Made by a program: the position numbers and the translations under genes. Below the pieces are notes generated by a model. It did not search any database. It saw nothing but the letters and a program-made list of their open reading frames with translations, and was not told where the DNA came from. From Psammoneis japonica (lineage: Eukaryota): 64,000 bases of DNA. Positions 3,121 through 55,259 of the stretch are shown piece by piece (within the stretch, counting starts at the first letter, position 1; each line of letters starts with the position of its first letter). The stretch is from contig QPGO01000084.1 in the NCBI GenBank assembly GCA_008632985.1, forward strand, positions 124,001-188,000, given 5' to 3'.

Positions 3121-3154
3121 CATGCCATCGTGAACTTGAACGTGTTTGAGCCAA

Positions 3155-26804: not shown

Positions 26805-26824
26805 TTCTCAGAAAAATCCGATTT

Positions 26825-30600: not shown

Positions 30601-31633
30601 CAAGGCGAACATCGTCGCGATAGACGCGATCAGCCGACTTACTATAGAAAATTGAATCCTACGACAATGTCCTACCGTTAAAACGGGATAAAGACATTTC
30701 CCTCCAAATTGTCGGACGCGACATATCATACGAACACTTTTCGTGGAGGCGAGCGAGATCGAAAAATGCTCATGTCATAAGGAAAAAATCGCCTTATTTA
30801 GGGACGGTTAAAGAAAAAATCAGTGACAGATTGGTATACATTATACGTACCTACTTCACACTGGCAAAAGACAATCTCACAACACCCGTACGGTTGTATT
30901 GTACAATGTACGAGGCAAGACATTAAAATATACATCATGTCGACACACGAGATGTGCCAAAGATCTAGAAAAAGAAAAGAAAAATGGACATTTATCCACT
31001 TAGTGCACGAAACCAGTGCCTTCGGAATGACAAAATAACACCGGTATGTCAGAAAGAAACGTCCAAATAACGATTAAAATCCAACTGATAGATGGTTGAA
31101 GTACAAAAAAAAAATCCATAATGGAATTCATAACCATCACAGGATTGATTATCAAGACGAAATGGTCATAATATCTTTGACCATCGTTTGTTGTTACTTA
31201 TGAAACGTGGTAGTGCAGCAGAGCAATATGGCATATAAAGTAAGCCCGCCAAACTACATGAAATCCACAAGTAAGTAAGTGAACGCCATAATTAAGAGCG
31301 TACATTAAGTACTGGGCACGATGCTATGTACAATCGATATCAGGAAAAACACTTACTCCAGGACAATTAGTCCTTGTGTTCATATCAACAAAGAACGTCA
31401 ACGAGAATACTCGACGTAATACTATATATACATATATATAAAGTGAGAAACAAACGATGTCACTCTCATAAGACATTCGGAAATTGGAACGGCCCCACAT
31501 GGCCTATATACAAAACGACAACAGTCATTACTAATGGCACAATACAGTGAACGTGGAGACATTATTGACACTGTCAATATCCGTCGAATAATCCACTTAA
31601 CAAATGACTCTAATGTGCAATTAGGGAGGCGAA

Positions 31634-32000
31634 TGCAGTATGCGACTGTTATATACATATTTATGATTATACATTATTTATATGTCAATCGTACCACAGT
31701 CGTGGATGCGTACAAAGGACAGAACGATCACACAGAGTTGATCGGATGTCGAGAATTGCAAATACGATCGATTGACGATGTTGACATCTTACGTGTCAAT
31801 AGCAATCGTATCCGGACAATCTGTTGTCACGAATATATTCTCCGAAAGGCCTTTTGTCTGTAGAAGCAGTACAGAAGCTTTAGGCCATTGAGAACTCATT
31901 CGGAGAAACCAAAAATCACAGAGTAAAATCCAATCTTATAATTTCCACTTTTCGTACACTATTCTACTTTCGTTTACACTCGTTCTTCGAGCATAGTGCA
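31634..32000 (+). repeat. 3' LTR
   Basis: Direct repeat of 27255-27621. Confidence 0.95.
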
Positions 32001-34763: not shown

Positions 34764-36479
34764 TGCAACATTCTTACCCGGTAGGGAACTTTCTTGGTGA
34801 AGAAAAGAAAAATATCTAAGCTAGACTAGCACTCCCTCGTTGGCCGTAGCCGGCTTCTCCCCACGACGTGTGGGGCGCCTATTCATCTCTAGTTTATCGT
34901 TTGACTGGAAACTTGGATTGCGAGCTTCTTCTCGGCCCTTTGGCGCTCAGGCTACGCAAGGTTGCTCAATCATCCGCGCTGCTCTCAAATCCCTTCATCC
35001 ACCCTCTCTGCTCTTGAGTCCCTATCCACTATACCTAGCTCTTGATTGCTGTGCAGTCCGAGGTTTCGTTGATTCTGGCATTTCGAGTTTCTAGATCCGT
35101 AATTGTTTGAATGCAGGTACGTGTTGGTTATGCGTACGTTCTGAACTGCAGGCGCCACGAAAATTCTGGTTTCGAATATCGCTGCTCACCCGACTTACCG
35201 TTCACGCATGTAACAGTCAGTGCCTTGTTGGTCATTCGAGGATACGGTATCAACAAATTGCGCCAACGATAACGTCAATTCTTTCTATATCTCCACAAGC
35301 TGAACCATCCTTGCTGTCTGAATGCAGGTGGGTGTGTTGTGCATGTCAATATATCCGAACTGCGGGCGCCACGAGATTCTTTGACTAAATATCGCTGCTC
35401 ACCCGAATCTTACAGATCGCGACTTATGATGAAAGCAACAACGCGACCTTGTTCATACATACAAATGGAAGCAACTTGGGCAGTTAACAAAACTCGCCGA
35501 CAATCTTCTAGAACCAGTAAGTAATCAAGAGCCAGTGCAATTCCGCGCCTGGTCTTCGTCTTCTTGCCTGTTCATTCACCGTTTGCTTGACTTCGCTTCT
35601 TTTCTCCCTCGATCTTCGGCTCTCTCGATCTCCAACCGTCTCGAACCATCTCGAAGCTCTCCCTCTCTCCGCAGAATAGAAGAAAGTAGAAAACAGCCGT
35701 GTGAGTGAGAGCGGAGAGGATGAATCGAGAACGAGTCAATAAAGTCTGAAGCACCGCAGAACCTTCACGAAAAGTCCGCCCTCGAGCGAGATCGGAGGTC
35801 CTTTACTAGAGAATAGGTATTCAGCGTGCTTTAACTTCTTTGTCTGCTCTCGTAGATTGCTCGTAATAAACGTGTTTGCTGGCACTGACAGAATGGAATA
35901 CCCCATCGTACCCACGTACGATATGGCCTGGTGTTCTTCCTTTCTTTTCGATTCGACATATATTGATACACTCAACCAAACACACAGAGGAAAGGCTCCC
36001 CAGAACCAAATCCCCGTCAAGTCTTTCAATCAACGATAGCGTAACTATTGCTACGAGAACTCAAGACAACTCACCCTTGCGGAGCAACCTTGGTTATCAA
36101 CGAGCCCACGTGGTTAATCTAGAGGCACTGAATGGGTTGTTTGCCTTGTGAACGTGTGAGCGTAGTCATTCTGGTTTGATTGACCGCCATTTTGAAACCG
36201 CCGACGCCAAAACTCGGGAAATTGTGGGCTGAGGTTACAACGAATTTATAATGTATATGTCTCCGTATGTTATATTTTTCGATGTGCGAACCTTACGACG
36301 TCATAGTATTTCATTATATTCAAAAAATTAAATAAGCATTCGATCGTCGACGGATCGACGGAGTGCATATTTCATCGCCAGCGCCACACCATGGCGTCGA
36401 TCGTTTGCTCTCTTGCGTTCTGATCCCCTCATTTTTGCTCCTCTTCTACACTTTCCACGTGGATTTTTCTGTGAATTTG

Positions 36480-37500
36480 TTTCCGGAGATGCAAGAAAGA
36501 GAATCGTGGATGCAATCCACGGTGCTTTCGTCGCGGATGCCGCATCGCTTGGTACTCATTGGTATTACGACATGAACGATTTGAACAGAGTCATCCCCGA
36601 CACGGATGCTCCCGAGTTTAGGAATCCACCTGCACCACAATTTTATTCAAAAGAAGAATTTCCGGGGCGTTACAATTTGGGGATGCTTAGTCCTTATGGG
36701 GAACAATTGCTTTTCGTGGCGGACTATGTTGCATCGAGAAAGGAAATTGAGGGAGGATCCATGACTCTTGCCATGTTGGACTGGGCGACGTCCTTTGGGG
36801 GGAGACTTGATCATGCTACCAAAACTTTTATTGAAAACATGTCAGCGAAAGGCGAGAAATGGCCAAATTGTGGTGCAGATGATAATCAAGGTGAGCAGCT
36901 GCAGTAGCTAAGCATGTTTGATCAAGCACGTCAGCGTCTCTCTCACTCCACACCTCCTCTTGCATACGACTCGAAAATAGCCCACATCTACACAAAGATT
37001 GTAACAGTAACTTATTTGTATATGGTTAGTCTCGAACGTCGGGCCATGGTAGAAGAAGCTATTCGAGTGCACCAAAACAAAAAGTCTTGGAAGAAATTAG
37101 TGGCGATACTTCTGCTGCGGTGAAGGATGCATTCGCTACTGCATCGAACGCATCTGGTAGTAATTTGACAGAACTACTCGAAGAGGTTGGTCGTCACTGC
37201 GGACTGCCTGCGTCATTCATCGGGCCTTCCTTCCAGATTGTGACTTCCAAGTTCGACTCATCTCCCCATGCCTACAGAGATGCGATGAGAGAAAATATAC
37301 GTGCTAGTGGAGATACTTGTGGTGGGCTACCTTCATTGGTTCCATATTTGCTGCAGCTCATGGCGGACACCCGGGTTCTTGGTTAGATGAATTGAACGAT
37401 GATGTGTCGAAGCGTGTTGAGGCTGTTCCCACCGTTATCGGTGATTCTTCAATCGCCAAGTCTCACATGTATGTACGCATCTCATTTCAATTGTTTTGCT
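36480..37500 (+). pseudogene. ADP-ribosylglycohydrolase / crystallin J1-like gene with frameshifts
   Basis: AIHGAFVADAASLGTHWYYD, SPYGEQL, GADDNQ; probable intron 36890-36980; GRHCGLP, AMRENIRASGDTC. Frame changes near 37080 and 37320. Confidence 0.72.
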
Positions 37501-38330
37501 TTTGACTTTGGATGTGAAAGTACATGATGTTCTCATTGATTCTTTGTCCAACGAAGACAAAAGCGTTCGGTAGATACCAGTAGTGAGATCCTGTTGGTGT
37601 GCGCGCTCGGATTGCTTTCATACACGCTGTTGCTACTCGACGTGTTTATGGAAGACGCAAAACTCGGTAACGAAGAGACCAAGCTTGCTAGTGTTCGAAA
37701 CCAATTGGTGCGGATTTTTTGTGCTTTCATTTCTTTTCATGAAGCACTCAAAGACTCGCATTGCGAGTCTCCTTGTTACCTGATGTGAACACCCTCCTGT
37801 CCATGGCATCTCCCTTCATCAGTGTAATGATATGCTACTCTCTTGGAGAGAGAAAAGCAAAGTCCAGCATACCATACCTACAGTAATGTAGAAGGGTCCA
37901 GTGGTAATGCGGGAGCTACAGTACCGGAGCTTCTTGGGAAGAGAACCGTTGTTCACCTTTCAACACAGTCGCGTTTGCAGCCGCGAGTCATTCAGCTCAG
38001 CCCATCCACGTTTTCGTTTCGTTTCCGTCGGCTTGACGAGCGTAGGCTTTTCCGTTTGAAAGAATTTCTAAACCAAATCCGGTTCTCATCGCATTCGCAC
38101 CAAAGCATTGTTGACATCGGGAAGGCAGACTTTTGCAACAAGCAAGTCGACTCCCTTTGCAAAGGCTGTAATCCTCGAATTCAGAATGTAGATCCTCTAG
38201 CTTGTTTAGACCTAAATGAGGGATATGCAATCTCCCATGCATATAGTCAATATCTAAACGGTGGCACATTCACCAGCCTCGTCACTACCGTGATTTTATA
38301 TTACTATTCTTCTACCGCATAACCGCACAT

Positions 38331-39284
38331 TTACACACTCTGGAACTCTCCCTTTATTGCTCGTTCACCTTGTGGAACAACATTTTCGAGCCGTTGAATC
38401 AGACGCTTCTGCAATCCAAATTCACTGTCCACCGCTCCCATCAAATGGGATCGACATGCTCACACATGTCTCCGACAAAGGCATACATTAACAAATTGCG
38501 CGACAGCGCTCGATCAATCCCACGCGATCGTAAATAAAACAATTCTTCTTCACTCAAATCCGACACAGTCGCTCCGTGCGTACACTGGACATCATCCGCA
38601 ATAATTTCCAAGGACGGAACGGTCCAAATGCGGGAACGGTCCGAAAGCAGAATGGTACGTGACAATTGTTGACTATCCGTTTGTTGTGCCGATTGCTCCA
38701 CCCGAATGCGTCCACGAAAGGAGGCCGTGGCGCGGCCACCCACCATGTTTTTTGTCCCTGACGACTGACCGTGCCTTGACCGACGTGATGGATATTGGTC
38801 TTCATGTCTCCACGCTGCGCTCCACCGGAAAGCATAAAGCCATTGACCGTAGCACTTGCTTCGGGACGAAGAAGCGAGACGGAGAGTGCGACACGGACGC
38901 GGCCACTTCCGCCGACCCCCAAGAGTGTGCCGGTATACGAGGCAGCGTCACCCATGCAATGAACATCGATTACTTCGAGGTGTGTATCTTGCAGTTCAGC
39001 ACGTTCCGCTTCCACCTCTCGTGGAAGTGGCGTACCTTTTTCAACATCCTCATCATTCAATTCCACACCCGCCGTCACCATGCCACCCGTTTCTTCCAAA
39101 TAGGAATGCGTCACATTGGCGCCCGTCTTGACAAACATTTGCGTTTATCCGTTGCGCAATTTGGGTCGAACCATTTCTCCGGATACATCCAAATCGATGC
39201 AGGACTGAATTAAGGACAAGTTGCTTCCTTCCTCGGCAATGATGAGTGCACGAGGATGACACGAAACGCCCTTTTCACTTTGAT
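38331..39284 (-). pseudogene. sufD: Fe-S cluster assembly protein SufD, 3' part
   Basis: HPRALIIAEEG, FRGRIRVEQSAQQTDSQQLSRTILLSD, PSLEIIADDVQCTHGATVSDL..EELFYLRSRGI. In-frame stop at 39145-47 and frameshifts near 38750 and 38440. Confidence 0.9.
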
Positions 39285-40376
39285 GAGTAAAGGGAAAAAA
39301 GTGTGTCACAAGTGTGTCAAGTGTGTCAGTGTACCATGCCATCACGTAAACTCTACACAAACTGCATCCGGGTGACACACACTCGTTTACTTATGGGTGA
39401 CACACTTAAAAACATAAGGGTGACACACTTACTGACTCACCTTTTTACCGATTTGAATTGCCCCTGACACACTTATTTTTCAATTTCTACAGCCCCCTTG
39501 CCGGTACACAAACATGTAGAATGCACGAAAATCACGACCAAATTGATGGCGGAAAAGGGAAAAGTGTGTTGTACGATATTATGTACCAACGTCTATGCAA
39601 CCAGAATTGGATTAGAGTTTTATGTTTAATCCCGCGGATTTCCGCAGTACTGACCGCGTGGATTTCTACACTGTGCGTTGAATCATCCACGCCTTTTCGT
39701 ATGATGCGAACCACAAAACATCGAAATAGCAAATCGACGCCGACCAACAGGAGCTTCATTTCTTCCGCAACCAACTCTTTCTCTCCTTGTTTCTGCTCTT
39801 CACCAAAACTTGACAAAAACTCTGGTCACACAAAGAAATTAACAGCACTCGTTTTTCTTTTGTGTCTGCCAAATTGTGTCCAGAACACTGTTTCTACAGG
39901 ACTCTGGTACAGATTTTGTGTAGAAAAATTGTGGCACCTGGTTGTCACTAATTCTGCTTTGCCAGTGGTGAACACATTGATCTAGTGTGCTCAGAGCACT
40001 TGCACTGGTTGGAGAAAACCACGAAGAACACCAGCAGGGAAAAAGTTGGCTCATTTCTGCACCAACAAACTTTTCTCACAGCAAGCCCAGGCGCCGGTCG
40101 CCGCCCCTTTCTGGAAAGCCCCCTGCTCCTCTCCTGTTCAGTGTCGTTCCCCAAGAGGCTGAGAAAGTTTTTTGTTCAGATCTGAGCCCAGTGCACAGCA
40201 CTGCATGGTGAGTTCCATCCACACTTTGCAGCTTCTTGCTGGTCTTTGCATTTTTGCAAAAAGGAAGTCTGGCCCACCCGCCGGACGCGGCGGCCCAATT
40301 TTTGGTTTTGACAGACAATCTCAACTCAAGCTTGTTCAACAAATCTTTTCTCCTGAAAAACACCATCAGCTGAGCC

Positions 40377-42420
40377 ATGAGCACCTCCAAGGGCGAGCCT
40401 GAGGATGGGCTCACTCCCCCCCCACAAGCACAGCAAGGCTTCTTTGCTCAGTTTGTGCAGCCCAAGCTTTTGCTGGAGAGGATGGAGTTTGAGCAACGCC
40501 AAAGAGACCTGCTTTTGATGGTGAACAATGCAGCTGGCACCAATCTTGTGCCTCCTGACCTTGCCACACCTTGGCCTGCTCCAGCTCAAGCTGGCTTTTT
40601 GCCAATGCAGCCCAGCTCCAGCCAACCTGCGGCCCGCAGAGCTCAGGTGTCACAGCTGTCGCCGTCCTCCGTTGGCAGGAAAAGCACCCAATCACTGGGG
40701 CAGCCTCACTCTGCTGCCAAAAGCTTCCCCTCTGCCAAAGCTCTGTCTGGCACTTCAGACCTGGGCCCATCTGCTGCCTCTGTCCCTGGCTTGTCCAACA
40801 TCAACGTGGGCTTGCCCGAGCTCCCCAACTCCCACTCTCAAGTGTGGTCTGTTGCTGGAGATTTGCCAGGCCGCTGCCCAGGTGTTGGCTGGGCAATGGG
40901 AGTCTACTCTTGTGTTGAGCGTGGCACCAAAAAGACAATTTGCAAACACTGCTTGGGTGTCCACATTTGCACAGGTTGCAGCCTTTTTGTTGAAAGGCCC
41001 CGCCAGCCACAGGGTGGAAAAAAGAAGTTCATGCCTCCCATGCCATCAAAGCTGGTGTGCCCAAACTGTCCAAGCAACGCAGAGGGCAAGGTGCCAGCAA
41101 TGAAGCACATGCCTTGCACCTGCACAATGACCTTCACAAAGGATGGAGGCTCTGCTTGGCTTGTGCAGCACAAAGGAGCACACAAACACCCCAAGCCCCC
41201 GCCATCAAAGTTGACGCCTCAAGCACAAAGTGCGTTTGACAATCTTGTCCATTTGGCTCCAGAGGCAACTCCATCACAGCTCAGGGTTGGCAACCAAACC
41301 AGGGCACCAGTTTCAAAGCTGCACCCATCATTGTTCAACTTGGACAGAGCGAGTTATTTGCGCCAAAAGGCGCTGAAGCCCATGTCTGTCCGCTCCTCAA
41401 TCGCAGAGCTGGCAAACTTCAGAAATGATGTGGACAGATCCTTCATTCGAAGTGAGCAACTCACCACAGAAAATCAACACATCATTGTGCAAAATGATGA
41501 CATGATTGAGCTGTTGAAAGAAGGCAACAGCCCCCTGCAAACAGACTCTGTGGAAGGTTTTGTTTTTGATCCGGACTTCCAAGGTGAAATCAATGTCACG
41601 TTCACCTCAGGGTTCGACCTCACCCTGCAAATGTGGACCCCTCTTTGCATCAGCATTCTGTTTGGGAAAACAGAAGCCCACTGCAAGGTGCACTGGCAGG
41701 CTGTGCTCCAGTGCACACGAGCTGAGTCGTGGCCACAGTTTGTGGACGAGTTTCCTGGCAACACCAGTGACTTCTCAGATGCCATTCGGAAGGGTTTTTT
41801 TGCAGCCATGAAAGTGTTTGCAAAAGAAAAGTTTGACCAGGCAAAGGTTGCAGATGAAGAAACCAACCACCTTTGCAAGTTTTGCAATGTTCACTTTGAG
41901 AGGTCACGTGCCAGAGTTGCCCGCAACAGAGGTGTTGTCTCTGCTGATTTGGAGGGCGAGTTTGACTGCCAGGTAAATGAGATGAGGTCATTTGCACAAG
42001 GACAGTGCGAAAAGTTGGAGAGCAGCTGCAAACTGTTCTTCAAGTGCTTCCCAAAGGCCACTTCTTGGTTAAAGTGGCACCTCAATCCCAAACGAGCCAC
42101 AATTTTTTTCGATGCTTGCAAAAATCTCAATGAAAGGCAGGCAAAAAAAATGACAGCCTTTGTGATGACACCAATGCTCAAGAGAATGTTGGGAAGCGTT
42201 TTCAAACATGCACAGTCAGGAAAAAAATGACAGTTGGAGAAACGCTTCTTCATGCATGGAAGTTCTGCAACTCCGATCAACAAGACAGGAAGGCAGTTCA
42301 GGCTGGGCTCCCCACTCGTCATGGCGCTTTTCAGACAGTTGAGAGTGGCTGCAACAGTCCAAGGAAAAGGAGCAAAAAGCGCAAGTTCACAAATGATGGG
42401 AGAGCTCCTGACATGTCAGA
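40377..42420 (+). pseudogene. MULE transposase with GCM-like Zn/DNA-binding domain
   Basis: CLGVHIC..C...RP...CPNC..HMPC...HKGAHKHPKP; DDE-core-like LQTDSV, TSDFSDAIRKGF, CNVH (CxxH), WLKWH; DTNAQE follows a frameshift in an A8 run (~42143-42150). Confidence 0.75.
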
Positions 42421-42559
42421 AAAGCTGCTCAAGCGATCACGAAAAACTTCCAAAAAAGACGCATCAACAATGCCAAGCAAGACACAAATGCAAACATCAG
42501 TCACAGACTTCTACTCTTGGGATGACCCCAATTCCATGATGGCCAGGATGTTTGACCCA

Positions 42560-44897
42560 CCAAGGTGGGGTGTGGAGGGCACCCCCTCACGCAGAGGAAT
42601 CACAAACACATGCCCTGTGGACAGCTTTGCTGTTCTTTTTGGAGGCCTTGACCACCTTGGTCTGCTGAACAGGCCAATGGCTGAGCTTCAACAGCCTGAT
42701 CACCTGTTGGCAAGAACTGTGGCTCTGATGAAGGTGGGCAGGCATGATGATGCTCGCCATCTTTGGGTGGCTGACCGGACAGTGCTGCCTTGCATGGATC
42801 GCACAGTGGTGAGGAGCAGCACACATGCAAAAAAGTTTGACATGTTTGGCCCATCAATTTCGGTTGTTTTTGGTCACCCATTCTTAGAGTCATTCGAGTT
42901 TCAGGTCAAATTTGAGTGCAACTGCACTGGTGGAAAAGATTGGTGCCCCAATGCACAGCCAACCAATGTGACAGAAACACGCACTGTTGTTGAGTGCATC
43001 GATGACCTCTCTCAGCTGCAAGAGACACTTGACAGGTGGGTGGGTGAGCACCTTTCAAGCTGTGCATGTCTGGAAGGTGGCGGAAAGGAGATGTCTCCTG
43101 ATGACCTGCAGCAGCTTAACTGGGAGACTGACACCACTTTGCAGGCAACAGTGGGTGCACACGCGGGCAATGCCTGTGGCGGCACTGTTTTTTCATCTGG
43201 AAAAAGAGTCATCAGGTGCCCTCATTTCTTGGTGTGTCACGGGCCAGCAAAAGGTCCCACATCTGACTTGTCAACTGTCCCAAAGTCCACAATCTTTGCA
43301 GGAAAAAGAGGGCTGCTCAGGGGGACCATCAACACACAAAACAACATGCACCACACTTGCTGCATCAAGCTGCCTGTGGTGGAAAACAGAAGAACAGCTT
43401 CATTGCACCACAAGGTGCGCCATGGGCAGGGTGCCAGCAGAAGACATCAAGAATCTTGTGGAAGAAGCAACTGGGCTTCCCAATCATCAAGATCTCTGGG
43501 ACATGGCTGCAGAGTTGGGCATTTCTTTTGCGAGCCAACCTGGCAGTGAGCAAAAGGAGACACAGCCTGCTCAGACAAGTGTGAACAGTGCGCTCTTTGA
43601 GGGAGAAACAGTGTCGCTGCCTGTCATCAAATGGGGTGTGGACCCAACACCAAAGCTCTGTGAGTTGACCAACACGTGTTCGCTGGACTCAAATTTGGCA
43701 TTGATGTGGATTTTGCTGAGAAACAATGGTTTCACCAGCAACTCAGTTGCACCAAAAGCTCACACTCTGCACAAGGCAATGAAGATGATTGACAAAGGTC
43801 AGTCAGGAGAAGCAAGGCACATGATCCACAGGTCTGCCCCCCTCTCTCCACAGCAGAAGACACTGCAGATTTCAAACAACCCACAAAATGTTGTTGTGGA
43901 CTGCTGGGAAAGTGCAGGACTGAGGGCACAACACTTGCTGCAAGGAGGAGCCAAGCACAAGTTTCAAATCACACTGACCAGCTGTGCCAATCCATTGTGT
44001 CTGTTTGATTGCAAAATGTCAAAGTCAACAGCAAATCAAGCTGTTGCTTCCCAGAACTCAAAGTGGACTGACCTTGAGTTTTTTGAATCTGAAATTTTCA
44101 AAAAGCAAAGGAGAGTAAATTGCGCGATGTGTCATGAAAGGACAACTGTGAAAACAGAGGAGCTGTTGTCATTTGAGTCCAACTTGTTGGTTGCAGACAT
44201 GGGGCTTGGGGTGGACGAAAGTGGAAACAGCAGCATTTCCTCTCAAAGATTCAACACTTTGCCATTTGTTGTTCCTCACAAACACAAAGAACTGCATTTC
44301 AAGGGAGCAATTTTGGCAACCAACAACCACTTCAAAACCATTGTAAAGTTGCCAAACTGCTTTGTTGCACATGATGGCATGTGCACTCCACAATGTCAAG
44401 TGCACTCTCTTGAGGTCACAGAGGCGGAGGCAAAAGACATGCAAAACAATGGAGAGACTGAGTTTCATCTGCAGTGGCTTTTGCACGAAGTGTTGGACAG
44501 GGAGAACAGAGCAGTTCTTGCCAGCCCAGAGAAACAACTTCCAGAAAACCTTGACATGCAACATGACAGCACAGTGGAGGAGTTTCCAGAAAACATGGAG
44601 CCCCAAGATCAACCAAAGGAGCTTCCAGAAAATCATCCGCAGCCAGAAGCAGCTTCATCAACAACCACAGAATTGGCAAATGGCAGCTCTCAAGAGGAGC
44701 TCAGGTTTGTGTTTGTGGACACAATGGAGTCCTGGAGAAAGTGCAGGGGATGTGAAGGAAGAGTTAAGAAAGGGCAGGAGGCAATGCAGGTGAGGGTGCG
44801 GAGAAGGCCAAAGAAGGAAATCTTCTGCCACACAACAACAGAGTGTGTTCAAAACACACTGTTTTCACTGCAGGCGAAGATGGAGATGCAATGTTAG
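42560..44897 (+). pseudogene. MULE-borne region with two papain/USP-like protease domains and a C-terminal Zn finger
   Basis: Duplicated module WGV..TP....TNTCPVDS / WGV..TP....TNTCSLDS with downstream His boxes (NNMHHT; NNHFKT...AHDGM); RKCRGC...CHTTTEC. Confidence 0.55.
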
Positions 44898-45209
44898 ACT
44901 CATTTTGCAGCCAGGACCTTGCTCATTTGGAGAGCGATGCTGTGACAAAAGCACAAAGGGTGCTCCAGTCACTGTTGGACACAGAAACAAGCAGCGCCCC
45001 CCCTTGAGGGCATCGCCAGGCAACCAGGAGAAGAGCTGCCTGGTGCCCCAAAAAGCTCACTTCCATCTGACTTTTTTGGCTGTGTGGAGACTTGTTTTGT
45101 CACATCACATTTTACCACATCATTTTGGTTTGTGACAAAATTGCATTTCATGTCACTTGGTTACGTGCACATTGTGAAAGTGTGGCATTTAATTGTGTGT
45201 TTGACTCAA

Positions 45210-46000
45210 GTGCAACATCACATCACACCACATGACACAACATGACACAATGTGACATTGTGCCATGTGATGTCACACAACATGATGTGATGTCAAATGG
45301 TGTGGCTGTTTTGTGTCATGTGATGAACTGCACAAATGTCAATTGTCTGTCTCAAGTTCTGCAATTTAGTTTGTGACAACATTTCATTTTTTGGTGTCAT
45401 GTGATGAGCTGCAAAATTGTCAATTGTCTGTGTCAAGTTGTGCAATTTTGTCAAATGCAGAGCAAAGCAAATTCAGACATTGGTTCTGCAAAGTCGTGCA
45501 ATTTTGTTGAATGCAGAGCAAAGCAAGTTCAGACATTGGCTCTGCAAAGTTGTGCAATTTTGTCAAATGCAGAGCAAAGCAAATTCAGACATTGGTTCTG
45601 CAATTTCATTTAAATTCAGACATTGGTTCTGCAATTTTGTTCAATGCTCACACCAGGTTAAATTGAAAATTTGCTCATCTCAGGTGAAATTGTGGCACAA
45701 TTCAAGCACCATTGCATGCAGCGTGATGGTAAATCCAGACATGGGCTCTTCAACATTTAGCTCATCTCAGCTCATTTTAGGTCAATGTGACATGATGTCA
45801 ACACATTAAGTTGCACAATGTCACACGTGAACGAAATTGTTGTGTGTTTGGCTGAAGTGCAAAATCATGTCATCATGTGACATGACATGACATGTCATCA
45901 TGTGACATCACATGACATGATGTGACACAACAAACATGGCATGACAACATGTGGGTGTAAATGCCGGTTTAGTGTTGACACATGAAGTCACACAATGTCA
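45210..46000. repeat. Low-complexity block: 5-bp periodic YRYNR microsatellites flanking ~57-bp tandem repeats
   Basis: catca/catga/cacaa/tgtga/tgtca runs at 45215-45295 and 45865-45950; gtgcaattttgtcaaatgcagagcaaagcaaattcagacattgg x3 at ~45440-45600. Confidence 0.8.
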
Positions 46001-46023
46001 CACATCAAGGAGTTTCTGCACCA

Positions 46024-47217
46024 TCACATGCAGCGCAAGATTTTTTCAGCCTTTGCCGGATCTGGTGGACAAGCCTTCATTGCGTTTTTCAACTTGGCGC
46101 GACTGCTTTTGTCCAAGGCTTTCAACACACAAACCTTCTCTCCTCCAATTCTCTCAAAACAATCCAACATGGTCACCTTTGTTTTGAAGTCTTTGTCGCT
46201 TTTGTGGCCCTCCTGAAACTCAACGCAGCCATGCCATGCCTTGGTCACAGCAGCTGCAGATCGACCTTTAAAAGGGTTGGACTTGTGCTTGTCCTGTTGC
46301 TCGTCCTGCGGCTCGCACTGCTCCTCCTGTGGCTCATCATGCCTCTGCTGCTCGTCCTGCAACTCCTGCGGCTTGTCCTTCTGCCCATCCTCCCCATCAC
46401 CCACCTGCTCATCTTCCTCAGGTTGGTCCTTGTCCCCAATGTGGTGCTGTTCGTAGTTCTTTGGATCCTTGAGATTTCCCCTGGGGGCAAGTCGGTGCGA
46501 CAAAATGGTCTTCATTGCCATCTGCTTTTTCCTTCCATGTTGTGCAACAATGGCATCCTCTGCTGCCACCGGGCACCTGTTCCTGGGCTCATGTGCTTCA
46601 ACAACAGCAACCTCTGGGAAGGCCTTGCCACCGTGGCCCGCCGGTGCGTCTTCTTCTGCCATGCCCTTGTGACGGGATTTGTTGGGCTTCTTTCCTGTCT
46701 TGTTGCTCTTCTTCTTCCTGTGTTTCTGGGGCAACTTCGCCACCTTTACATCATCAGAGCTGTCAGCAGCAACAGCATCATCAGAGGAGCTGCAGGCAGA
46801 GGAACCGTCAGTGTCCTCAGAGACATCATCATCCAAGTCGCTGTTTGGAGCCGTCTTCCTTTTCTTGTTGGTGCCCTCAGAGACATCATTTTTTCCCCTT
46901 TTCTTCTGAAGACTCTTCAAGTGCTTCCTCCAGGCCTCAAAGTGCACACATTTGGGGCCATGCTTCTGGCAGCAGCTGGTGAGGGTGGTGGCTTTCTGGA
47001 TGGAATGCTCCACCCCATGCTCGGCGGCGCAAGGCAAACAAATGTGCTTGGTGGGTGTTTCCTCCACCATGCTGGGTGTCACCATGTTGTTTGCCCCACC
47101 TCCTGTGGATGCGGCAAAACAACGGATTCCTCCTTCCCTCATGGAAGTCTTGACAGCTGCCTTTAGTGCACGAAAGTCATTCTTTACACTTGACGACATC
47201 ATGGTCCACCAACACAC
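46024..47217 (-). pseudogene. Second, convergent MULE ORF (accessory, charged low-complexity)
   Basis: Long minus-strand ORF near the right TIR with K/D/E/Q-rich tracts. The convergent two-gene layout is typical of MuDR-like elements. ORF length is partly inflated by stop-codon loss. Confidence 0.45.
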
Positions 47218-47480
47218 AAACGATGTGAATGTGAACTTGGACGGTGTGCACCGCAGTGGGTGGCCGCGCGTCAGCTCAGAATTCTGATTGCATCGTGTGG
47301 TGGTGGCTCCTCTTCACATGCACACGTGGCAGCGTGTGCGGGCCTTCTGTCACTGGACGTCACCGTGACGTTGTTTTAATCGCACTGGACGAAACGCGCG
47401 CAAAATTGCACGTAAAAAATTGACACACTTGAGTGGCACACTCATGACACACTTGATGACACACTTTTTTCCCTTTCCCC

Positions 47481-47990
47481 CACTTTGATCACTGCTGTTT
47501 CCACTGTCGGCCGTCATGGCATTGACCAAAAGAACGGGTTTATCCTCATTTTGAGAAGCATGTCGAACACGCGCCACGGCGCCGGCTCGAATGGTGTTTG
47601 GGGCGGCAAAGCATGCTGTGCCTTGTTGAGCATCAATGGCAAATTGACTGGTGGGATCACCCATGTTGTGATCGGGTCCACTGAGTTTGCGATGCGACGA
47701 CAGCAGGGGGGTCAGACGGTCAATGATGACATTTCGTCACTTTAAAAAGGGGTCATTTCTTTGCTCAAGGGGGTTGTTGAGGGACGAGGCAAGTGACCGA
47801 GCACTGCAACAACTGTCCCGCCTGATGTCACCGCATCTGCAAGTTGCCATGAGAGCCAGCCGAAAACGCTCTGCGCGGGGGGGGGGCATGACCTGGTGCA
47901 TCCGCAAGCTGAGTGACTTCCGCCGCTCACACAAGCTCGCTCTGCGCGTGACTTCTCCACACCATGATCACGCTTTTGGGTCAAATTGAA
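47481..47990 (-). pseudogene. sufD: SufD upstream part (TpA-depleted), continuing across the MULE
   Basis: SHRKLSGPDHNMGDPTSQFAIDAQQGTACFAAPNTIRAGAVA...KPVLLVNAMTADSGNSSDQS joins in frame to EKGVSCHPR at 39275 once the element is removed. Far boundary approximate. Confidence 0.8.
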
Positions 47991-50250
47991 GCTCCAAAGA
48001 AATGTGGGGGGAGGCGCAAAGCCCGTGTGAGACCTCCTTGCAGCTCTTGCAACAAAAAACACATCCAGCAGTGCACTGTCATGGCAGGAGACAAGGCAAG
48101 TCATGGTGCCCACACAGCGACTTTGTCGTGCCTGGTGAAAACAGCGGACAGCCACAGCATCAAAAGTTGCTGTTCTTGGCACTGGAGGAGCTCAAGACGC
48201 GCTCTGCAAGTCCAGCCAGGTGAGGGGCACTCCCAACTGGGAGGTCTGCAAGTGGTGGGTGAGGGGCCTTGCCTGCCTCCTCGCGCCACTCACTGGACTG
48301 TGCACACGAGACTTTTTTAGATGATGATGCCACACCACATTTCTGCGTGCTGTCTTCTGCAAAATTGTTCCAGGCTCCTTTTTTTTGTGAAGCCAAACAA
48401 GGCTTTTTATTTTCCACATTTGTGAGAACGAAAACAGTGTGCTTCAAATGTGGAGGAGGAGGCACTTTCACAAAATGGCCCATTTTTCTGTTGGCAACCA
48501 CAGAGCATCTTGCACACAGAATCTGCAGGCAAATGCCACACAGCCCCACCCAGGGCTGGTGAGCACATCTCAAAAAGGAGGCAAGATCTGGCGGCTGCTC
48601 TGCGGACAGCTGTGGAAAAGAAAACACAAGCAGCGATGGTGACACTTCTGCCTCCTGGATTTTTGACTGGTCAATGTGGGCGACAGGCAGGCTCTGCAGC
48701 TGACTCTGGATGGGCCAGAGCAATCTCTTGTGGAAAAATGACAAACCTTGAGTTCAATCTTTTGCAGAGGATGAAAGAAATGACAAAGCGAGCACGGAGA
48801 AAGGAGTCATGAAAAAGCTGAAGCTTCCAACTTGCTGCATGTCCTGAGAGAACAAGGTGTCAATTTCATGACACGCTGCACATCATGCAAGCAGCAAAGG
48901 CAAGTTGGTGTGCCAGGCACATGTGTGCAAAAACATGCAGACACATCTTCAATCTGGCAGCCAGCTGTGCTGAACAAGCTCTGTGGCCCACCTGATGGCA
49001 CTCTGCATGTGGCTATGCCAACCCAGATGTGGTGCATGCCTTTCAACAAAAGTCAAAGTGAACAATGTTTTGAAAGCATTGGCGAGTGGTGCCAAGCAAA
49101 AGAAGAACAAAGATTGCTCCCCTTGCTGCTGTGAGGCATTTGTGTTGGCCATGTGAAGCAAAAGTGGCAGGAGCCAGCCAACACACACAAAGAGACCAAG
49201 TCAGAAGCTGTGGCCTTGCACAGAGGAGACAGAGGGGGCACTGCAGTGGCAACAATGACTGTGCAGGGCAGTGATGTGCACAGGCTCAGATGCTTGACTG
49301 GGCAAGAGAGTGGAACATTTGCAGGTGCAAATGTTGGGAACATTTTGCAGCAAAAAAGTTGCTTGATTTTTGTGGTTGCACTCATGGGTTTTTCCCAATT
49401 TCTGTTGGGACTCTCTCTGTTTTGTGTGCCAGCTTTGGCTTTTCATCACAGCAAGAAAGTTTTGTGACAATGATGGTCAAAGTGCACCACAAAATGCAAA
49501 CAGCACAGCCATTTGGCGCCAGCCATGGGAATCTCATCAGTCTGGCGCCACAGCACATGTTTCAGCAGCAGGTGTCAGTGCTTGATGGCCCTGCTGCAGG
49601 CATTTTGTTGTGGCCACATTTTGTCTTCTGCCACACTGGGGGAACCACAATCTCTCTCCACAGAGTTCCGTGGCATTTTTGTGTGGAGCCACTGACAAAA
49701 CTGACCTGCGGTCATGCCGCTGTTGCTCTCATCAGAGAGGTTCTGCAGCAGGGGATGCCAGCAGATCACAGGTGAGCTGCCAGCTCTGATTTCAAGAGGA
49801 AGGGCTGAAAACAAAGTTCTGTTGAAGAAATGGGCAGTCAGCTGACAAACAGAGCACTCCTCCGCCCTTGGGCTGACTCTTCCAGTGCCCAAAATGTGCA
49901 CGATGTGCTCTTGACCTGAGGGCTGGCTCAAGACAACACCTTGCACCATCTCCAATTGCCAAAACAAAGATGTGGTGTGCCCACATCATTTCATCCTGCT
50001 TGAAAGATCTTTCGCACTTGATCCACACCTCTCCCCATTGAATGCTCCTCACACAGAAATCACAAGAGCTGTTGGTGTGCCGCTGTGATGGTGTCAGTTG
50101 AGACTCCAATTCTTGCGGTCCATGCTGTTGCGATGAGACAAGGCAAACAAGGACAACAGCAGTCCAAACAGTGGTGTGCTGCAGCCGGTGACGTGACGCG
50201 ACGTGGATGGCTGATGAGTGATGCATGAGATGATGAGAGCGATGAGCGAT
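47990..50250. other. Unclassified TpA/CpG-depleted degenerate sequence
   Basis: Same compositional signature as the neighbouring transposon; no motif that I can assign. Confidence 0.5.
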
Positions 50251-50471
50251 GAATGAGGCAGGGCGCTCGCGAGGTTGGAGAAAACGGCATGTAGACTACG
50301 AAGTCTGGCGGGGCCCTCGTCCGTCCGTCCCTGTCACCTTCAGCCCGCTTCCCGCCGTTCTTCCATGCCACGCACATCTTGAATGTACAGTTAGCATCAT
50401 GCCATAACGGTATCAATCGTAGTGTTGTTGTTGACTTGTGAACTATTTCTGTTCTAAGCTATGCCATAATC

Positions 50472-51398
50472 ATGCTGAAGTCGCTAAGGTCTAGTAGATT
50501 AGTCTTCCATGTGAATCGTCGAGTTGTCTTTTCAGCTCAGAAAAGTCAGTCGCAACAATGTTTACTTCTAAGAAGATGGAAAAGCGCGCATTCCTCCGAG
50601 GAAGCGCAACGCCGGGCCTATGATTTTTACCGCAAGAAGCAACCAAAGTCTTGGCTTTCTAGAAAGAAGAACAACCCTATGTCTCGTGAAGAGCGTGCTG
50701 TTCAAATGGCATGGTATAGTTTTGCCGTGGTGGTAGGTGCGCTGGGTGCAACATATGCGTCTGTTCCGTTGTACAAAATGTTCTGCCAAGCCACGGGTTT
50801 TGGTGGAACGACACAACGAGTTACTCTGACGGATTGGGCGCAGCAGCAAGAAGAACGTGAAGCGAGTGGAATACCACGGCAGATTCAAAACTTGCTACAG
50901 CCACTCTTGGAGAAAGCTCCCAAAGGATTGAGAAACACGGGCCGTGTGCATACATGGACCGACGAAGAAGCGGCTGCGAAATTGGCAACGCTAAAACCCG
51001 TGGAGAATTCGAGATTAATCACGGTACGATTCGATTCGACGGTGGGTGATGTGCTACCTTGGACATTTGTTCCTACGCAATTGGACGTCAAGGTGGTTCC
51101 GGGTGAAACCGCTCTGTCCTTCTTTACAGTTTCCAACAAATCCAACAAGGCCATCACCGGTGTCGCCACTTACAATGTGCATCCTCCCAAGGCTGGATTG
51201 TATTTCAACAAGATTCAGTGTTTTTGTTTTGAAGAACAGCGGCTGCTACCGGGGGAAACTGTAGATATGCCTGTCTTTTTCTTTATCGATCCGGATTTCT
51301 TGGAGGACCCACAACTGAACCATGTGAATAACATTACACTGAGTTATACCTTTTTCCAAACAGACGAAGAGGAAGATGATGATGGAGGGGAAGAATAA
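50472..51398 (+). CDS. COX11: Cytochrome c oxidase assembly protein COX11 (mitochondrial)
   Basis: Basic transit-like N-terminus; YASVPLYKMFCQATGFGGT; VVPGETAL; YFNKIQCFCFEEQRL; DMPVFFFIDP; ITLSYTFF. Confidence 0.96.
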   Translation: MLKSLRSSRLVFHVNRRVVFSAQKSQSQQCLLLRRWKSAHSSEEAQRRAYDFYRKKQPKSWLSRKKNNPMSREERAVQMAWYSFAVVVGALGATYASVPLYKMFCQATGFGGTTQRVTLTDWAQQQEEREASGIPRQIQNLLQPLLEKAPKGLRNTGRVHTWTDEEAAAKLATLKPVENSRLITVRFDSTVGDVLPWTFVPTQLDVKVVPGETALSFFTVSNKSNKAITGVATYNVHPPKAGLYFNKIQCFCFEEQRLLPGETVDMPVFFFIDPDFLEDPQLNHVNNITLSYTFFQTDEEEDDDGGEE

Positions 51399-52321
51399 AT
51401 AGTTTGAGTGGTTTTGTTCTTCCTTTCGCGTATAGGTACATGTAGGGGGGCCGCGTTACAGTATCTCATGCATTGGCTTCTGAACCGAACACATAATGCT
51501 CATTTCCCCACCTAATCGACGAGATCCGCTTCGCCAGAGCTAGAACTGCACTCTGCAAAGAACGTCAACATACTAAAACATCCTTGCTACAGAACGTTAC
51601 AGTATTCAATTAAATATGCCAGTGTTCATTGGACTCTACTTGCAAACAAAGACCAAAGCCATCCAAGAGAAGCGGCAAGGTTTCGCGAGATGGGCCTTCT
51701 TGCTCGCCTCACGTTGCTTCTGGAGTTCTTGAATCTGCTGGAGGAGGGCGCGGTCATCTTCATCAGAGGCGTCATCGCCAGAAGGCTCGCCAGCTGCAAC
51801 TGGAGCAGCGGTCTCTCTACGACAGCCTTCCACGGAATCCTGAGCCACAGTTTCGTCGTTGGTGTAAAGGACGGTCTGGAGGCGGGGTCCGAAGTAGCGA
51901 ATGATGCGATCCTGGACCTCCCGGACTGGGGCATTTCCCTTGCTGGTACAGAATCCAGGAAAGTCAGTTTTTTTTTTTTTGCCTGTTCTCCTGCTCATCG
52001 CAGTCCTTCGGATCCGACTCCCCACGTCATGGTCAAGCTGTGCGGCACTATAGACAACTGCAATTTGTAATTTTGTGTGTTGTGAAATTCTTTCGATTTA
52101 TTCATTGCCACACGAACCTGCGCAATGCCTTTGCAAAACTATCGCACGGCTGCCTACGCCTCGTTACATCTCGACCGAACAAAGAGCTCTCGATCCAATC
52201 AAATGTGTCAAGGACACAATTTCTTGTAGGAACTTGTTTCACCAGGTATATGGAATGCCACAACGCAAAGGAAATACACTCGGCATGTCAAAAGATGTTG
52301 GTGTCTCCAATTTGAACCTGG

Positions 52322-52344
52322 GAGAGAGAGAGAGAGAGAGAGAG
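52322..52344. repeat. (GA)11 microsatellite
   Basis: Directly visible. Confidence 0.9.
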
Positions 52345-54029
52345 CTTGTCCATCGCCAAAGTTAAACACTGGCAAGAGTATATGGTACCATATTAAACGT
52401 GGAGTGAGAATATGGCATTTGAGGGTTTTCGAGGACGAAGAACACTGGATCTGTACCCACGAGTCTAGCTCACCTGTCCTTTTCTGAGCGCATCGCTGTC
52501 CATATCGTTCCAACAACATATTCCTTGAGCATTTGTTTGAACTGAATTGTTTCTCCTGTTCATCACTTGCGTATTCTCCTCCATGAGTCGTGGTGCAGAC
52601 TACTGCCAATTCTTGGACTCATATTGAAAGTTCGGTCGGTTGTCATGCTTGGGTATGGGTCCCTTATAACGATCGGTCTTGGCACGAGCCATGAGCAAAA
52701 CCGCCTTGATTCAATGGCGTGAGCGGTCGTTTCTGCATTCAATGTCTTAGAGGTCGGATCCCCCCGTCACCGAGCCCGGTTCGTCGTAAAGCTCTTCAAA
52801 GGGTATGATTTGTCTGTTCAAGATATTGCAAGTGGTGCTTCAGAGTCAAATAGTGAAGAATGATTCTGCTCTTGTTTGTGATAATCCTCGTGATCGCATT
52901 TTGTATCGAGATCCGAGATGGCAGCCTATGCCTGCCAAGGCCCCAGTCAAATTAGATCCAGAGGGCGATTTGCTCCGTCTTTTGCTTTTGCGACATGATA
53001 GCAATGGGAAGCATAGATGCTGTGTAAGATGCTGGATGTTGGAGCGGCCCGAGATTTCCGCCCGTCTAGTAGAGCGAGATGCGTGACATTCGATCTGCTT
53101 GTGTCTGCGTAATCAAATACAACACCCAGCATATCCCGGCATCCCATTATCAACGAACCGACAACACGCAAGAAACAGCGGCGGCAACAACTGCACTGCG
53201 GTGTCGGGTGTTGAGACGTCAAGCTCATTGGGCGGGGCCATAGTGCGACAATATGAATAATTTACGTAGCTTCTACGTCAGTTTGATTTTTGAAAAGCTC
53301 CCTCCAACGTCAGTCCCCCGCCCGATTCGCGGAATCCGGAATTGAAAAGGCGGCAGATTAGATGCGAAACCGAGATAGTGGCAAGCCTCATCCATTTCTG
53401 CTCTTAAAGGACGACAAGAACCACGTTGTAAGTTGCAAAGTTGAAAGTTGTTTTTGCTGCGGCATCAGTTTGTCGACTTTGTGCACTCATCTTGCTCAGC
53501 TATTTTTTCAACTATGGATTGACGAAAAAAACAGCTGGAGGTGGTGAAATGGCTTCGCCTCAAGATCTGCCACAGAAAAAATGAGGCTGACGAGGTGGGA
53601 GCTGAATTGTTGAAGATTGATTCAATTCGAATCTTGATTGGCATGACGATCGACGTTTTCAAATTGTGCTATAACGTCAAAAAGAGAAGAACCGTGCTAT
53701 GATACACGTTCAGTGTGCTGAAGGTACGGAAAAGATATCCGACCTTGTTTTTTTGTCGGACACCAGACAACTTCGTTCTCGGGAGTGGTTCACTACGAAT
53801 ATATTGTACTATGGTAGTACAGTATCCACTCTCGCCGAGTCTCATTGGAAACAAGAAAAGTTCGCTCTGGTTCTTTTGTTACGAATTTCGAATGCTTATG
53901 AAAGCAAACCAGTCGAGGAAGCGTTTCCGAAGAAAACACTCAACTCGCTACTGCTTTTGACGTCTTGGAACTATCGTCTCTAAACAGGCATATTCTTGGA
54001 ACTACCTGAAAAAGCTACCAGTAGGCAAT

Positions 54030-55058
54030 CTCTTTTTCATGACAAGCGGCTTGGCATGGGACTTGTACAAGCTACACCACGATATCTTTTTCGAGCTAGC
54101 GGGCAGGAGCCGGATACACTTGCTATCTCGCAAGAGGGTAATGAAACATTGGATTTTGCTCTTGCGTTGCCTGAGCTTTTGTTGTTATCTACCGTACAGC
54201 ATTTCCGTTGGCGCCTGCAAGAAGGAAGAAATGGTTTTTCGTGGAGACAGGGATTTTTCCGTGAGTCCATGACAAGGCATGAGTACCACAGTCGGAAACA
54301 AGTTACAATTACAGATGAAGCTGGGGATTTTCTCTTTTGTCGAGAGTGGTCCATTGGCGTATCCACCGCTTCAGCCTGAGTGACGAGGGCACGTCGTAGG
54401 CAGTGTCCTCAACTGTTTTTTCCATGCCGCGGCTACTTTTTCGTGGCGTCGACCGTCGGGGCAACGTGGTGGAGCAGGCGGTCGATCAGCGCGAGCAAGG
54501 TCATCTCATTCAAGATTGACGACGAAACCCGCGTGCTACGGCAGGTCAGCATGGTTGGGAACCTTTGGGGTGGCAATCGCGGTGCGATGTCACCGCGACA
54601 GTGCATACGTCATGACGTTCAAAGAAATGGATCCGCTGCATCCATACATCATCGATCTGTCGATTCCTGAGAACCCCCGGGTCAGCGGAGACCTCAAGAT
54701 TTATGGTTTCAGCACGAACCTTCACCGAGTGGAACCGGGAGAAGTCCTCGGTGACGGAAAGGACGTGTCAAGTTCGAGCGCATGCTTGGGGACGAAGGTG
54801 TCGCTGTTCGACGTGAGCGACGAAACAAACCGAAAGAAGTGGCAATGTGGACCTTCAAGGGAAGCTAGTCAAATTCAGAGTGAGATAACCGGGCATTTTT
54901 GCACTGAACAAAAGCGTCAACTCGCAATCATGCCCGTTCCTATGACCGAAGATAGAACGGTGTTTAGCGGCGCCATAAATCTCAAAATTGTGGAAAACAT
55001 GAAAACAAAAGCGAGCAGCAGTGTTCCTTCCCTGCCTTTCAAAACTAACGCTAGCTAG
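54030..55058 (+). pseudogene. Beta-propeller-domain (Beta_propel-like) protein remnant
   Basis: AVRCHRDSAYVMTFKEMDPL.PYIIDLSIPENPRVSGDLKIYGFSTNLH...GTKVSLFDVSD matches the family pattern VRF.GD.AYVVTF..VDPL.VIDLS.P..P...GELKIPGFS.YLH...K.SLFDVS; frameshifted. Confidence 0.7.
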
Positions 55059-55259
55059 AGAGAACCATGGTTGTCTCCACCACGATTTCATTGAATCATA
55101 GAGCGGCAGCAGGAGCCCGGATCGTGGCCGACAACATTCTCATGCGTTTCAAAGTTTTGTTGCAGAGCACTTCTAGTCTTGACATGGATCGTCGTTAAGT
55201 GCTATTTTTTCACATGGCTAGTGATTTTTCAATTTCCCGCACTTCGCCTGTGCCCGTCC

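Follow-up and report, generated by a model that had tools for sequence, protein, structure and literature searches.

Near-complete loss of TpA in mobile-element and pseudogene DNA of the diatom Psammoneis japonica suggests a TpA-directed mutational process

Introduction

In the chlorarachniophyte alga Bigelowiella natans, integrated DNA of nucleocytoplasmic large DNA viruses (NCLDV) and of virophages undergoes TpA>TpG/CpA hypermutation (Mettrop et al., bioRxiv 10.64898/2026.01.13.699255). According to the main text of this preprint, 231 of 302 nuclear mutations recovered in mutation-accumulation lines fell within the integrated NCLDV and virophage DNA, and 230 of these 231 were A>G or T>C, all on TpA per the authors; the rates were about 6e-7, and the process was non-constitutive, with 11 of 15 lines affected. 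The same source describes 124 genomic clusters of 1-kb windows that are poor in TpA and rich in CpA and TpG, as well as an enrichment of DDE and reverse-transcriptase domains among TpA-poor coding sequences, and its authors suggest an ADAT2-like adenine deaminase (Mettrop et al.); its main text makes no mention of CpG or of diatoms. Here, we analyse a stretch of 64,000 nucleotides of the diatom Psammoneis japonica (assembly GCA_008632985.1, contig QPGO01000084.1, positions 124,001 to 188,000; the whole of this stretch is hereafter the window), in which five blocks containing a Mutator-like transposon and pseudogene fragments have lost nearly all of their TpA.

Several better known processes leave related traces. 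Repeat-induced point mutation (RIP) of ascomycete fungi changes C:G to T:A, mostly at CpA, thus creating TpA, and is duplication-dependent. The P. japonica blocks resemble its products in the dense transitions within mobile DNA, the sparing of host genes and the degraded coding capacity. Yet, here TpA is destroyed and TG/CA is in excess, a high-copy miniature inverted-repeat transposable element (MITE) is spared while fragments without another copy in the window are affected, and strand-coordinated runs are absent. Decay of methylated CpG is also of relevance, as diatom transposable elements (TEs) are reported to be CpG-methylated through DNMT5a (PMC9998398), and four of the five blocks show the expected loss of CpG with an excess of TG/CA; such decay, however, cannot remove TpA, which has been lost also from DNA with intact CpG. 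Restriction by deaminases (APOBEC3/AID, ADAR, ADAT2/TadA) likewise consists in context-specific transition hypermutation of foreign nucleic acid, and a U/T placed 5' of the A to be edited is preferred by ADAT/TadA and ADAR (Discussion of Mettrop et al.). In contrast, APOBEC/AID act on C and ADAR/ADAT canonically on RNA, whereas the DNA affected here is chromosomal, with both of its strands hit.

The original prediction, made for this window from its letters only, had proposed a TpA-directed hypermutation of repeats of which it knew no prior description, a claim of novelty that the B. natans preprint removes, as far as its main text goes. In the literature we found no other description of TpA-directed hypermutation and none in diatoms, the supplements of the B. 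natans preprint being outside this search.

TpA-poor blocks and their borders

The abundance of each dinucleotide was expressed as the ratio of its observed count to that expected from base composition (O/E), in a 1-kb scan that was then refined by the positions of single TpA. In the scan, TpA O/E drops to 0.00-0.14 at 1-4000, 26001-27000, 40001-50000, 55001-56000 and 58001-64000, takes values of 0.26 and 0.47 in the border windows 4001-5000 and 56001-57000, and lies between 0.39 and 0.92 in all remaining windows. Refinement gave five blocks (Table 1), which retain 58 TpA in total. Their TpA O/E of 0.02-0.05, as compared with 0.59 in the adjoining host DNA, bears out the predicted domain-wide loss of TpA with saturation in TG/CA, and the loss is confined to blocks with the Mutator-like element and pseudogene fragments. 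Tested against the host TpA level, the Poisson P for the blocks ranges from 2e-9 to 2e-116. TG and CA each have an O/E of 1.4-1.95 across the blocks, with 1.71 for TG and 1.74 for CA in block 39984-50291. The same calculation, run within the window, revealed a depletion of CpG that had gone unnoticed in the earlier reading: CpG O/E is 0.08-0.36 in four of the five blocks, together with the TG/CA excess, the exception being 25906-26695.

Block borders are sharp. The final TpA before block 39984-50291 is at 39983; hence, the block predicted to begin at 40000 does exist, with its left edge placed at 39984, 699 bp inside a transposon. On the right, TpA is absent from 49015-50291 and then occurs 17 times in 50292-50600, the block ending some 150 bp upstream of the frame for Cox11 (50442-51398). 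Block 57877-64000 continues past the end of the window and forms, with 55290-56552, one block interrupted by a young insertion, the MITE-like element.

The residual TpA are skewed in their context: 44 of the 58 lie in TAA/TTA, as opposed to 635 of the 1675 TpA of host DNA (P 5e-9), and ATAT, ATAC, ATAG and GTAC account for none or one each. No flank rule could be derived from tetranucleotide gains in the blocks, these being confounded by ancestral composition. The scanned block intervals are overlapped by 126 stop-to-stop frames of at least 90 aa; long overlapping frames are numerous there, in all six frames, because TA-free DNA has TGA stops only.

Table 1. Coordinates, dinucleotide content and dinucleotide balance of the features discussed.
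Feature	Positions	Strand	TpA observed vs expected (O/E)	CpG O/E	Lost TpA + lost CpG vs TG+CA excess	Remarks
TpA-poor block	1-4466		7 vs 263.8 (0.027)	0.36	150 + 180 = 330 vs 347	
FG-nucleoporin-like frames, two overlapping	3158-4524	-				Pfam Nucleoporin_FG, E 1.1e-8; no Tyr in either
Host reference DNA	4600-25400		837 vs 1419 (0.59)	0.97		
Inverted-repeat pair	25540-25635 / 26704-26799					flanks tubulin fragment; straddles block border
Beta-tubulin pseudogene fragment	25898-26509	+				in block 25906-26695; tubulin beta chains, E 6e-42
TpA-poor block	25906-26695		2 vs 43.9 (0.046)	0.79	24 + 10 = 34 vs 37	
Young long terminal repeat (LTR) element, control	27255-32000		(0.76)	1.19		beside block
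DNA transposon, read as Mutator-like	39285-47480	+				8196 bp; present in one haplotype only
TpA-poor block	39984-50291		35 vs 643.3 (0.054)	0.34	348 + 409 = 757 vs 736	
Transposase frame, part 1	40374-42230	+				618 aa, 2 Tyr; GCM/WRKY-type zinc finger
Transposase frame, part 2	42134-43549	+				one-base shift at A8 run (42143-42150)
Second element frame	42972-44897	+				641 aa, no Tyr
Older TpA-poor relic	47490-50291		(0.09 at 47481-47699; 0.03 at 47700-50291)			insertion target of the transposon
TpA-poor block	55290-56552		5 vs 93.3 (0.054)	0.092	51 + 58 = 108 vs 102	
MITE-like element, control	56549-57876		(0.76)	1.15		1.3 kb; 48-nt inverted ends, 96% complementary; TCA on both sides
TpA-poor block	57877-64000		9 vs 410 (0.022)	0.079	235 + 315 = 550 vs 535	

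Balance of dinucleotides and CpG decay

With the host O/E values taken as the ancestral state, we worked out by hand, from the block counts, how many TpA and CpG have been lost and how many TG and CA gained. In all five blocks the sum of lost TpA and lost CpG approximates the TG + CA excess (Table 1), and decay of CpG by itself supplies about half of that excess. The two losses co-occur, yet they are separable. TpA has been lost with CpG kept in block 25906-26695, in the stretch 3800-4400, which holds 34 CpG and one TpA, and at 47481-47699 (TpA O/E 0.09, CpG O/E 0.97). The converse is seen in elements elsewhere that are related to the transposon, for example the metagenome locus L015, in which a CpG O/E of 0.06 accompanies an ordinary TpA O/E of 0.45.

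Within the blocks the TG and CA outcomes follow one another in random order (runs test, z from -1.1 to +1.2 in all five); this test detected no strand-coordinated clusters of either, of the kind known from deaminases. TpA has thus been lost on both strands.

Direction of change in host-gene fragments

A beta-tubulin fragment in block 25906-26695 is flanked by an inverted-repeat pair. Its left arm is situated beyond the border of the TA-poor block and its right arm within the block; compared over 96 positions, the two show 14 differences. Where the outer arm has TpA (seven sites), the inner arm, read as reverse complement, has CpA at five, TpG at one and TpA at one, while it contains no TpA that is absent from the outer arm; the change is thus one-directional. 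If the arms were alike at insertion, TpA was lost in place, with the border running through the element.

At two positions of conserved Tyr the tubulin fragment itself has His (CAC) and Cys (TGC), just as had been predicted, and three Arg positions are occupied by His or Gln (CAT, CAA, CAA). Near the left end of the window, two overlapping FG-nucleoporin-like frames combine an N-terminal part without known family, for which Atlas gave no match, with an FG-repeat part that includes 48-bp repeats at 3385-3672. Among PDB sequences, no match was better than E 0.49. TpA is nearly gone from this stretch and CpG is normal. These frames may be either a captured fragment or a functional host gene that suffered collateral damage. 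Neither the tubulin nor the nucleoporin-like fragment has a second copy within the window, yet both are depleted of TpA. In the same block, a homologue search with the frame 1031-1897 (minus strand) gave no match.

The Mutator-like transposon

The transposon in which the longest block begins is bounded by a 9-bp target duplication (39276-39284 and 47481-47489) and has a perfect 20-nt inverted core at 39289-39308 and 47457-47476. X1 and X2 contigs connect 39275 to 47481, skipping 8205 bases and sharing nine letters, which means that the other haplotype has an empty site and the insertion is hemizygous. Terminal inverted repeats, a 9-bp duplication and an empty site are thus present as structural features of Mutator-like elements (MULEs). 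We read the element as Mutator-like from the length of its duplication and from its GCM/WRKY-type zinc finger, both of which we take to link it to MULEs; Pfam transposase models found no match in the window transposase or its 10 relatives, and the Pfam GCM model matched weakly two of the 11 sequences scanned (best E 0.0023).

The borders of TpA loss ignore the ends of this element. Its left 699 bp (39285-39983) retain TpA (O/E 0.54) and CpG (0.80), while TpA O/E in the remainder is 0.04-0.22, and the depletion that starts at 39984 crosses the right end of the transposon into the older relic DNA which was its insertion target, as far as 50291. In the other haplotype, 39276-47480 is missing, 47481-47699 is present with 13 differences, and the sequence beyond 47699 is dissimilar. 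The locus 38001-56575 is structurally heterozygous, with 48228-56575 at single-haplotype depth (50-70). The hemizygous state and the near-identical TA-poor copies elsewhere (see below) imply that the transposon moved when already TA-poor and is still mobile.

The proteins encoded by the transposon record the loss of TpA as a loss of Tyr, and the low Tyr counts reported for its two main frames stand (Table 1). The 10 relatives of the first part of the transposase (E 4.5e-110 to 2.5e-63) contain 1.4-3.5% Tyr, as compared with 0.3% in the window copy. At six columns with Tyr in at least 60% of the relatives, the window copy reads H, H, C, C, L and Y, and at one of these columns it has Cys where all 10 relatives have Tyr. 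The second element frame has 17 relatives (best E 6.7e-17), all containing Tyr (0.5-3.4%); its residues 286, 467 and 505 are His at positions where nine, nine and eight relatives, respectively, have Tyr, residue 467 being the His of the YDG>HDG change that had been pointed out. No Pfam family was found in this 641-aa frame, and Atlas returned only UCH-like leads at 0.80-0.85, below the 0.9 mark. Pfam scans of 12 of the 17 relatives revealed no common family; one has a SET domain in another part of the protein.

TA-poverty is not intrinsic to the transposase family, a possibility that the original prediction had raised against itself: besides the normal Tyr content of the protein relatives, 14 of the 15 related metagenome loci have a TpA O/E of 0.34-0.71 over the matched region. 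The sole TA-poor locus among the 15 (L001, a public contig of 2034 bp, positions 418-2034) has O/E values of 0.02 for TpA and 0.06 for CpG and encodes a degenerate relative (53% protein identity, frame shifts and stops). At four columns with conserved Tyr, the window and L001 read H/C, C/H, Y/C and L/H, and the opposite Cys/His choices at two of them argue for independent outcomes of one process in two lineages. With L001, the footprint recurs in another public record.

The transposase frame is split by a one-base shift at an A8 run, and the relatives continue in the frame of the second part from 42143 up to 42949. An additional A behind 42142 is present in one contig (depth 79.8 of 317.1) and would fuse the frames to about 1059 codons; the shift may stem from an assembly error in the homopolymer, or the copies may differ here. 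Further along the element, 45250-45930 carries short direct (56-bp units) and inverted repeats of TGTGACA/TGTCACA-like words, and TpA depletion is milder at 45601-46000 (0.22).

Three Pfam scans were made, of 23, 125 and 20 frames (E up to 5 for the set of 20), and no transposase, reverse-transcriptase, integrase or protease domain was found in block frames. The 125 block frames yielded Nucleoporin_FG and Tubulin_C only, so the assignments to Copia, long interspersed nuclear element (LINE) and Plavaka-like classes were not confirmed. The LINE-like motif itself is present, at 58276-58302 in block 57877-64000, in a context with no Pfam family to confirm it as a LINE.

Young elements spared within and beside the blocks

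Two repeats served as controls (Table 1). The MITE-like element retains its TpA although nested in a TA-poor block, and contig depth in three bins over 56010-58000, which span it, is 886-1760 versus about 60 per haplotype and exceeds that of any other part of the stretch. The LTR element lies beside a block. Its 367-bp LTRs have a single difference, T at 27293 and C at 31672, which equals TpA versus CpA; the element is probably non-autonomous, since its longest internal frame has 178 aa. A self-comparison of the window revealed no paralogous TE copies besides the LTR pair and the host duplications.

As both elements keep TpA, copy number does not set off the process, and recent insertions carry no mark of it. 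The idea of a RIP-analogous process aimed at repeats fails on these grounds, and on the depletion of fragments that have no other copy in the window.

Contigs from reads

The reads found for the locus come from three runs (X1-X3) of one sample, probably the same that gave the assembly; no RNA run is listed for 36001-46000. Their contigs were compared with the window, to which X3 contributed no match. Those of X1 differ from it at one place over 48228-51743 and nowhere over 54496-56575; the TA-poor DNA so covered amounts to 2.1 kb and 1.3 kb, respectively. Heterozygous host sites have depths of about 56 of 113, which puts one haplotype at about 60. Depth in bins over 39335-49339 is 83-489 and mostly >117, so that near-identical copies exist elsewhere in the genome.

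X1 contigs differ from the window at 264 variant places: 76 A>G, 55 T>C, 50 C>T, 47 G>A and 36 transversions. Contexts were taken from 40 of 271 places, 28 in the transposon (39622-44722) and 12 in the host flank. In the transposon, eight places show TA versus TG/CA (TA in the window at six, in the contigs at two), nine show CG versus TG/CA (CG in the window at three), four form two TG/CA double changes and seven are of other kinds. Changes among TA, TG/CA and CG thus make up 21 of the 28 transposon places, against five of 12 in the host flank.

Proposed process and competing explanations

We consider it probable that a TpA-specific A:T>G:C mutational process erased TpA in the blocks, turning it into TpG or CpA. 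That the process acts on double-stranded DNA, and differs from codon bias, RNA editing and RIP, had been proposed before and is upheld by the random interspersion of TG and CA, the Tyr kept by relatives and the one-way changes between the repeat arms. The blocks would be old, probably silenced, mobile-element and pseudogene DNA of the diatom nuclear genome. In them, the A:T pair of a TpA step would be changed to G:C, on either strand, and ordinary decay of methylated CpG to TpG/CpA would be superimposed. The process would act in place, site by site and over long periods, within chromatin-like domains whose borders may fall inside elements and near the starts of neighbouring genes; copy number would be no trigger, and the rate would be slow or episodic, with saturation reached in old residents only. 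We infer that targeting follows a silent-chromatin or small-RNA state and is bounded by active gene starts, because in both elements it is the end next to host frames that has been spared, and the border on the right lies just upstream of Cox11.

As for the agent, a polynucleotide adenine deaminase with 5'-T preference, ADAT2/TadA-like, is our tentative candidate, a possibility that we hold at somewhat less than even confidence. The substrates of ADAT/TadA share a universal U33-A34 context, which would give such a deaminase a ready-made preference for TpA. This would weigh against a route through thymine, in which the thymine of TpA would be modified by JBP/TET-like hydroxylation to 5-hydroxymethyluracil (5hmU) and mispaired or misrepaired to give T>C. 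The thymine route is in keeping with the equal frequency of both outcomes, and sequence looks alike whether A>G took place on a given strand or T>C on its complement; we regard it as fairly unlikely.

The elements might, alternatively, have arrived or amplified in a TA-poor state, for instance out of a lineage mutated elsewhere or in the distant past, with nothing acting on TpA here at present. We judge this inherited composition to be unlikely; the points in its favour are given here together with those that weigh against a TpA-specific process. Contigs whose depth is 2-5x haploid are 97-99% identical to the TA-poor transposon, and the differences listed include only two TG/CA double changes; this near-identity of TA-poor copies implies that most TpA loss of the transposon predates both the divergence of copies and the present insertion. 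The hemizygous insertion with its intact 9-bp duplication moved while TA-poor, and the contig with A9 suggests that the TA-poor transposase frame is perhaps intact in some copy; if so, TpA loss need not have disabled the element. Young repeats in and beside the blocks retain TpA, their untouched state fitting a slow, an episodic or a ceased process. In-place action applies to the inverted-repeat element and may not apply to the transposon, and the comparison of repeat arms concerns a single pair of 96 nt. The balance of dinucleotides presumes a host-like ancestral composition. The copy differences are unpolarised and come from 40 of 271 places, with the contigs showing TA against TG of the window at two of them; moreover, contigs from the same sample test the assembly and not the biology. 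Finally, what the window offers is a long-term footprint.

Against inherited composition, the repeat arms show TA>CA/TG on the block side only, and depletion extends to the tubulin and nucleoporin-like fragments and to relic DNA that belongs to no element. Block borders lie inside two elements, in the left end that was spared, four TpA of the transposon are TG/CA in the contigs, and the sole difference between the LTRs is TA versus CA.

Error-prone patch repair by a Y-family polymerase in heterochromatin, with its WA>WG signature, had been named as a candidate mechanism in the original prediction. A>G at TpA represents half of the WA motif; yet, ApA is not depleted in the blocks (O/E 1.2-1.47 versus 1.17 in host DNA) and ApG is not enriched (0.93-1.06), which makes this explanation very unlikely. 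Still more improbable is A-to-I hyperediting of element transcripts followed by fixation through reverse transcription. ADAR-type and fungal TAD-type editing do prefer a 5' U (a preference taken up in the Discussion of Mettrop et al.), but what is affected includes a DNA transposon, fragments of host genes and the relic DNA alongside, both strands are equally affected with random interspersion, and borders ignore element ends. We give next to no credence to an artefact of assembly or base calling, or to CpG decay alone: although none of the contigs has the letter of the window at the 28 transposon places, which is tentatively attributed to contigs dropping minority variants, the contigs reproduce TA-poor stretches with zero to one difference over 2.1 and 3.5 kb, which also supports the bases, and CpG decay accounts for about half of the TG + CA excess and does not explain TpA lost where CpG is intact.

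Relation to Bigelowiella natans and significance

The signature of the TpA-specific process in P. japonica is the same as that measured de novo in B. natans, as presented in the main text of the preprint: TpA is the target, TpG and CpA are the products, and foreign or mobile DNA is affected beside normal host DNA (Mettrop et al.). The signature being known already, what is new here are the diatom host, the saturation, and the transposon and pseudogene targets. B. natans is a chlorarachniophyte, i.e., a rhizarian, while diatoms are stramenopiles, and a rate was measured there, in contrast to the footprint described here. In B. natans, the NCLDV region has a TpA O/E of 0.45, according to that text, whereas the P. 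japonica blocks are near-saturated at 0.02-0.05. Further differences are that CpG decay co-occurs here, that borders fall inside elements, and that a TA-poor transposon is still mobile.

The latter suggests that TpA loss is not always disabling, or that TA-free lineages escaped further attack. One may speculate, with considerable doubt, that a TpA-specific system is common to distant lineages of the stramenopile-alveolate-rhizarian (SAR) group and aimed at silenced chromatin independently of cytosine methylation, and that mobile TA-free transposons, devoid of further targets, evolve in response, in an arms race played out in dinucleotide content.

Defence-like mutagenesis of this type is so far known from one 2026 preprint and one alga, and its footprint, at saturation, in a second and distant host would mean that the process is not peculiar to one species. 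An almost complete absence of TpA, balanced by surplus TG/CA and distinguishable from CpG decay, could serve as a simple survey marker for eukaryotes. Some diatoms can be genetically manipulated; thus, the identity of the enzyme and its targeting are directly testable. There are also consequences for annotation. Spurious long reading frames are expected in TA-free DNA, so that gene callers would over-predict, and the mutated proteins escape family models, as seen from the lack of any transposon domain in the Pfam scan of 125 frames. With TGA-only stops and failing family models, the annotation of repeats and genes would be systematically wrong in such genomes.

Other features of the window

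Rfam and tRNA scans detected no RNA genes in the window. A 1223-aa frame on the minus strand (20808-24479), in which Pfam found no match, contains at 21161-22263 five to six tandem 156-bp units that are 77-89% alike. For the Dph2-like frame at 18724-20304 we found 411 relatives, and the 10 rows that name an organism all belong to diatoms (Fragilaria, Seminavis, Nitzschia, Cylindrotheca, Pseudo-nitzschia, Fistulifera and a Bacillariaceae metagenome-assembled genome), with identities of 44-51%; the best match overall, at 58% identity, is a row without organism name. These named relatives disagree with the fungal host implied by the TE names of the earlier reading. Two adjoining sulfotransferase-like frames on the minus strand (6348-8264 and 8644-10365), with about 65-75% DNA identity over parts of their length, represent a tandem host duplication in which TpA is normal.

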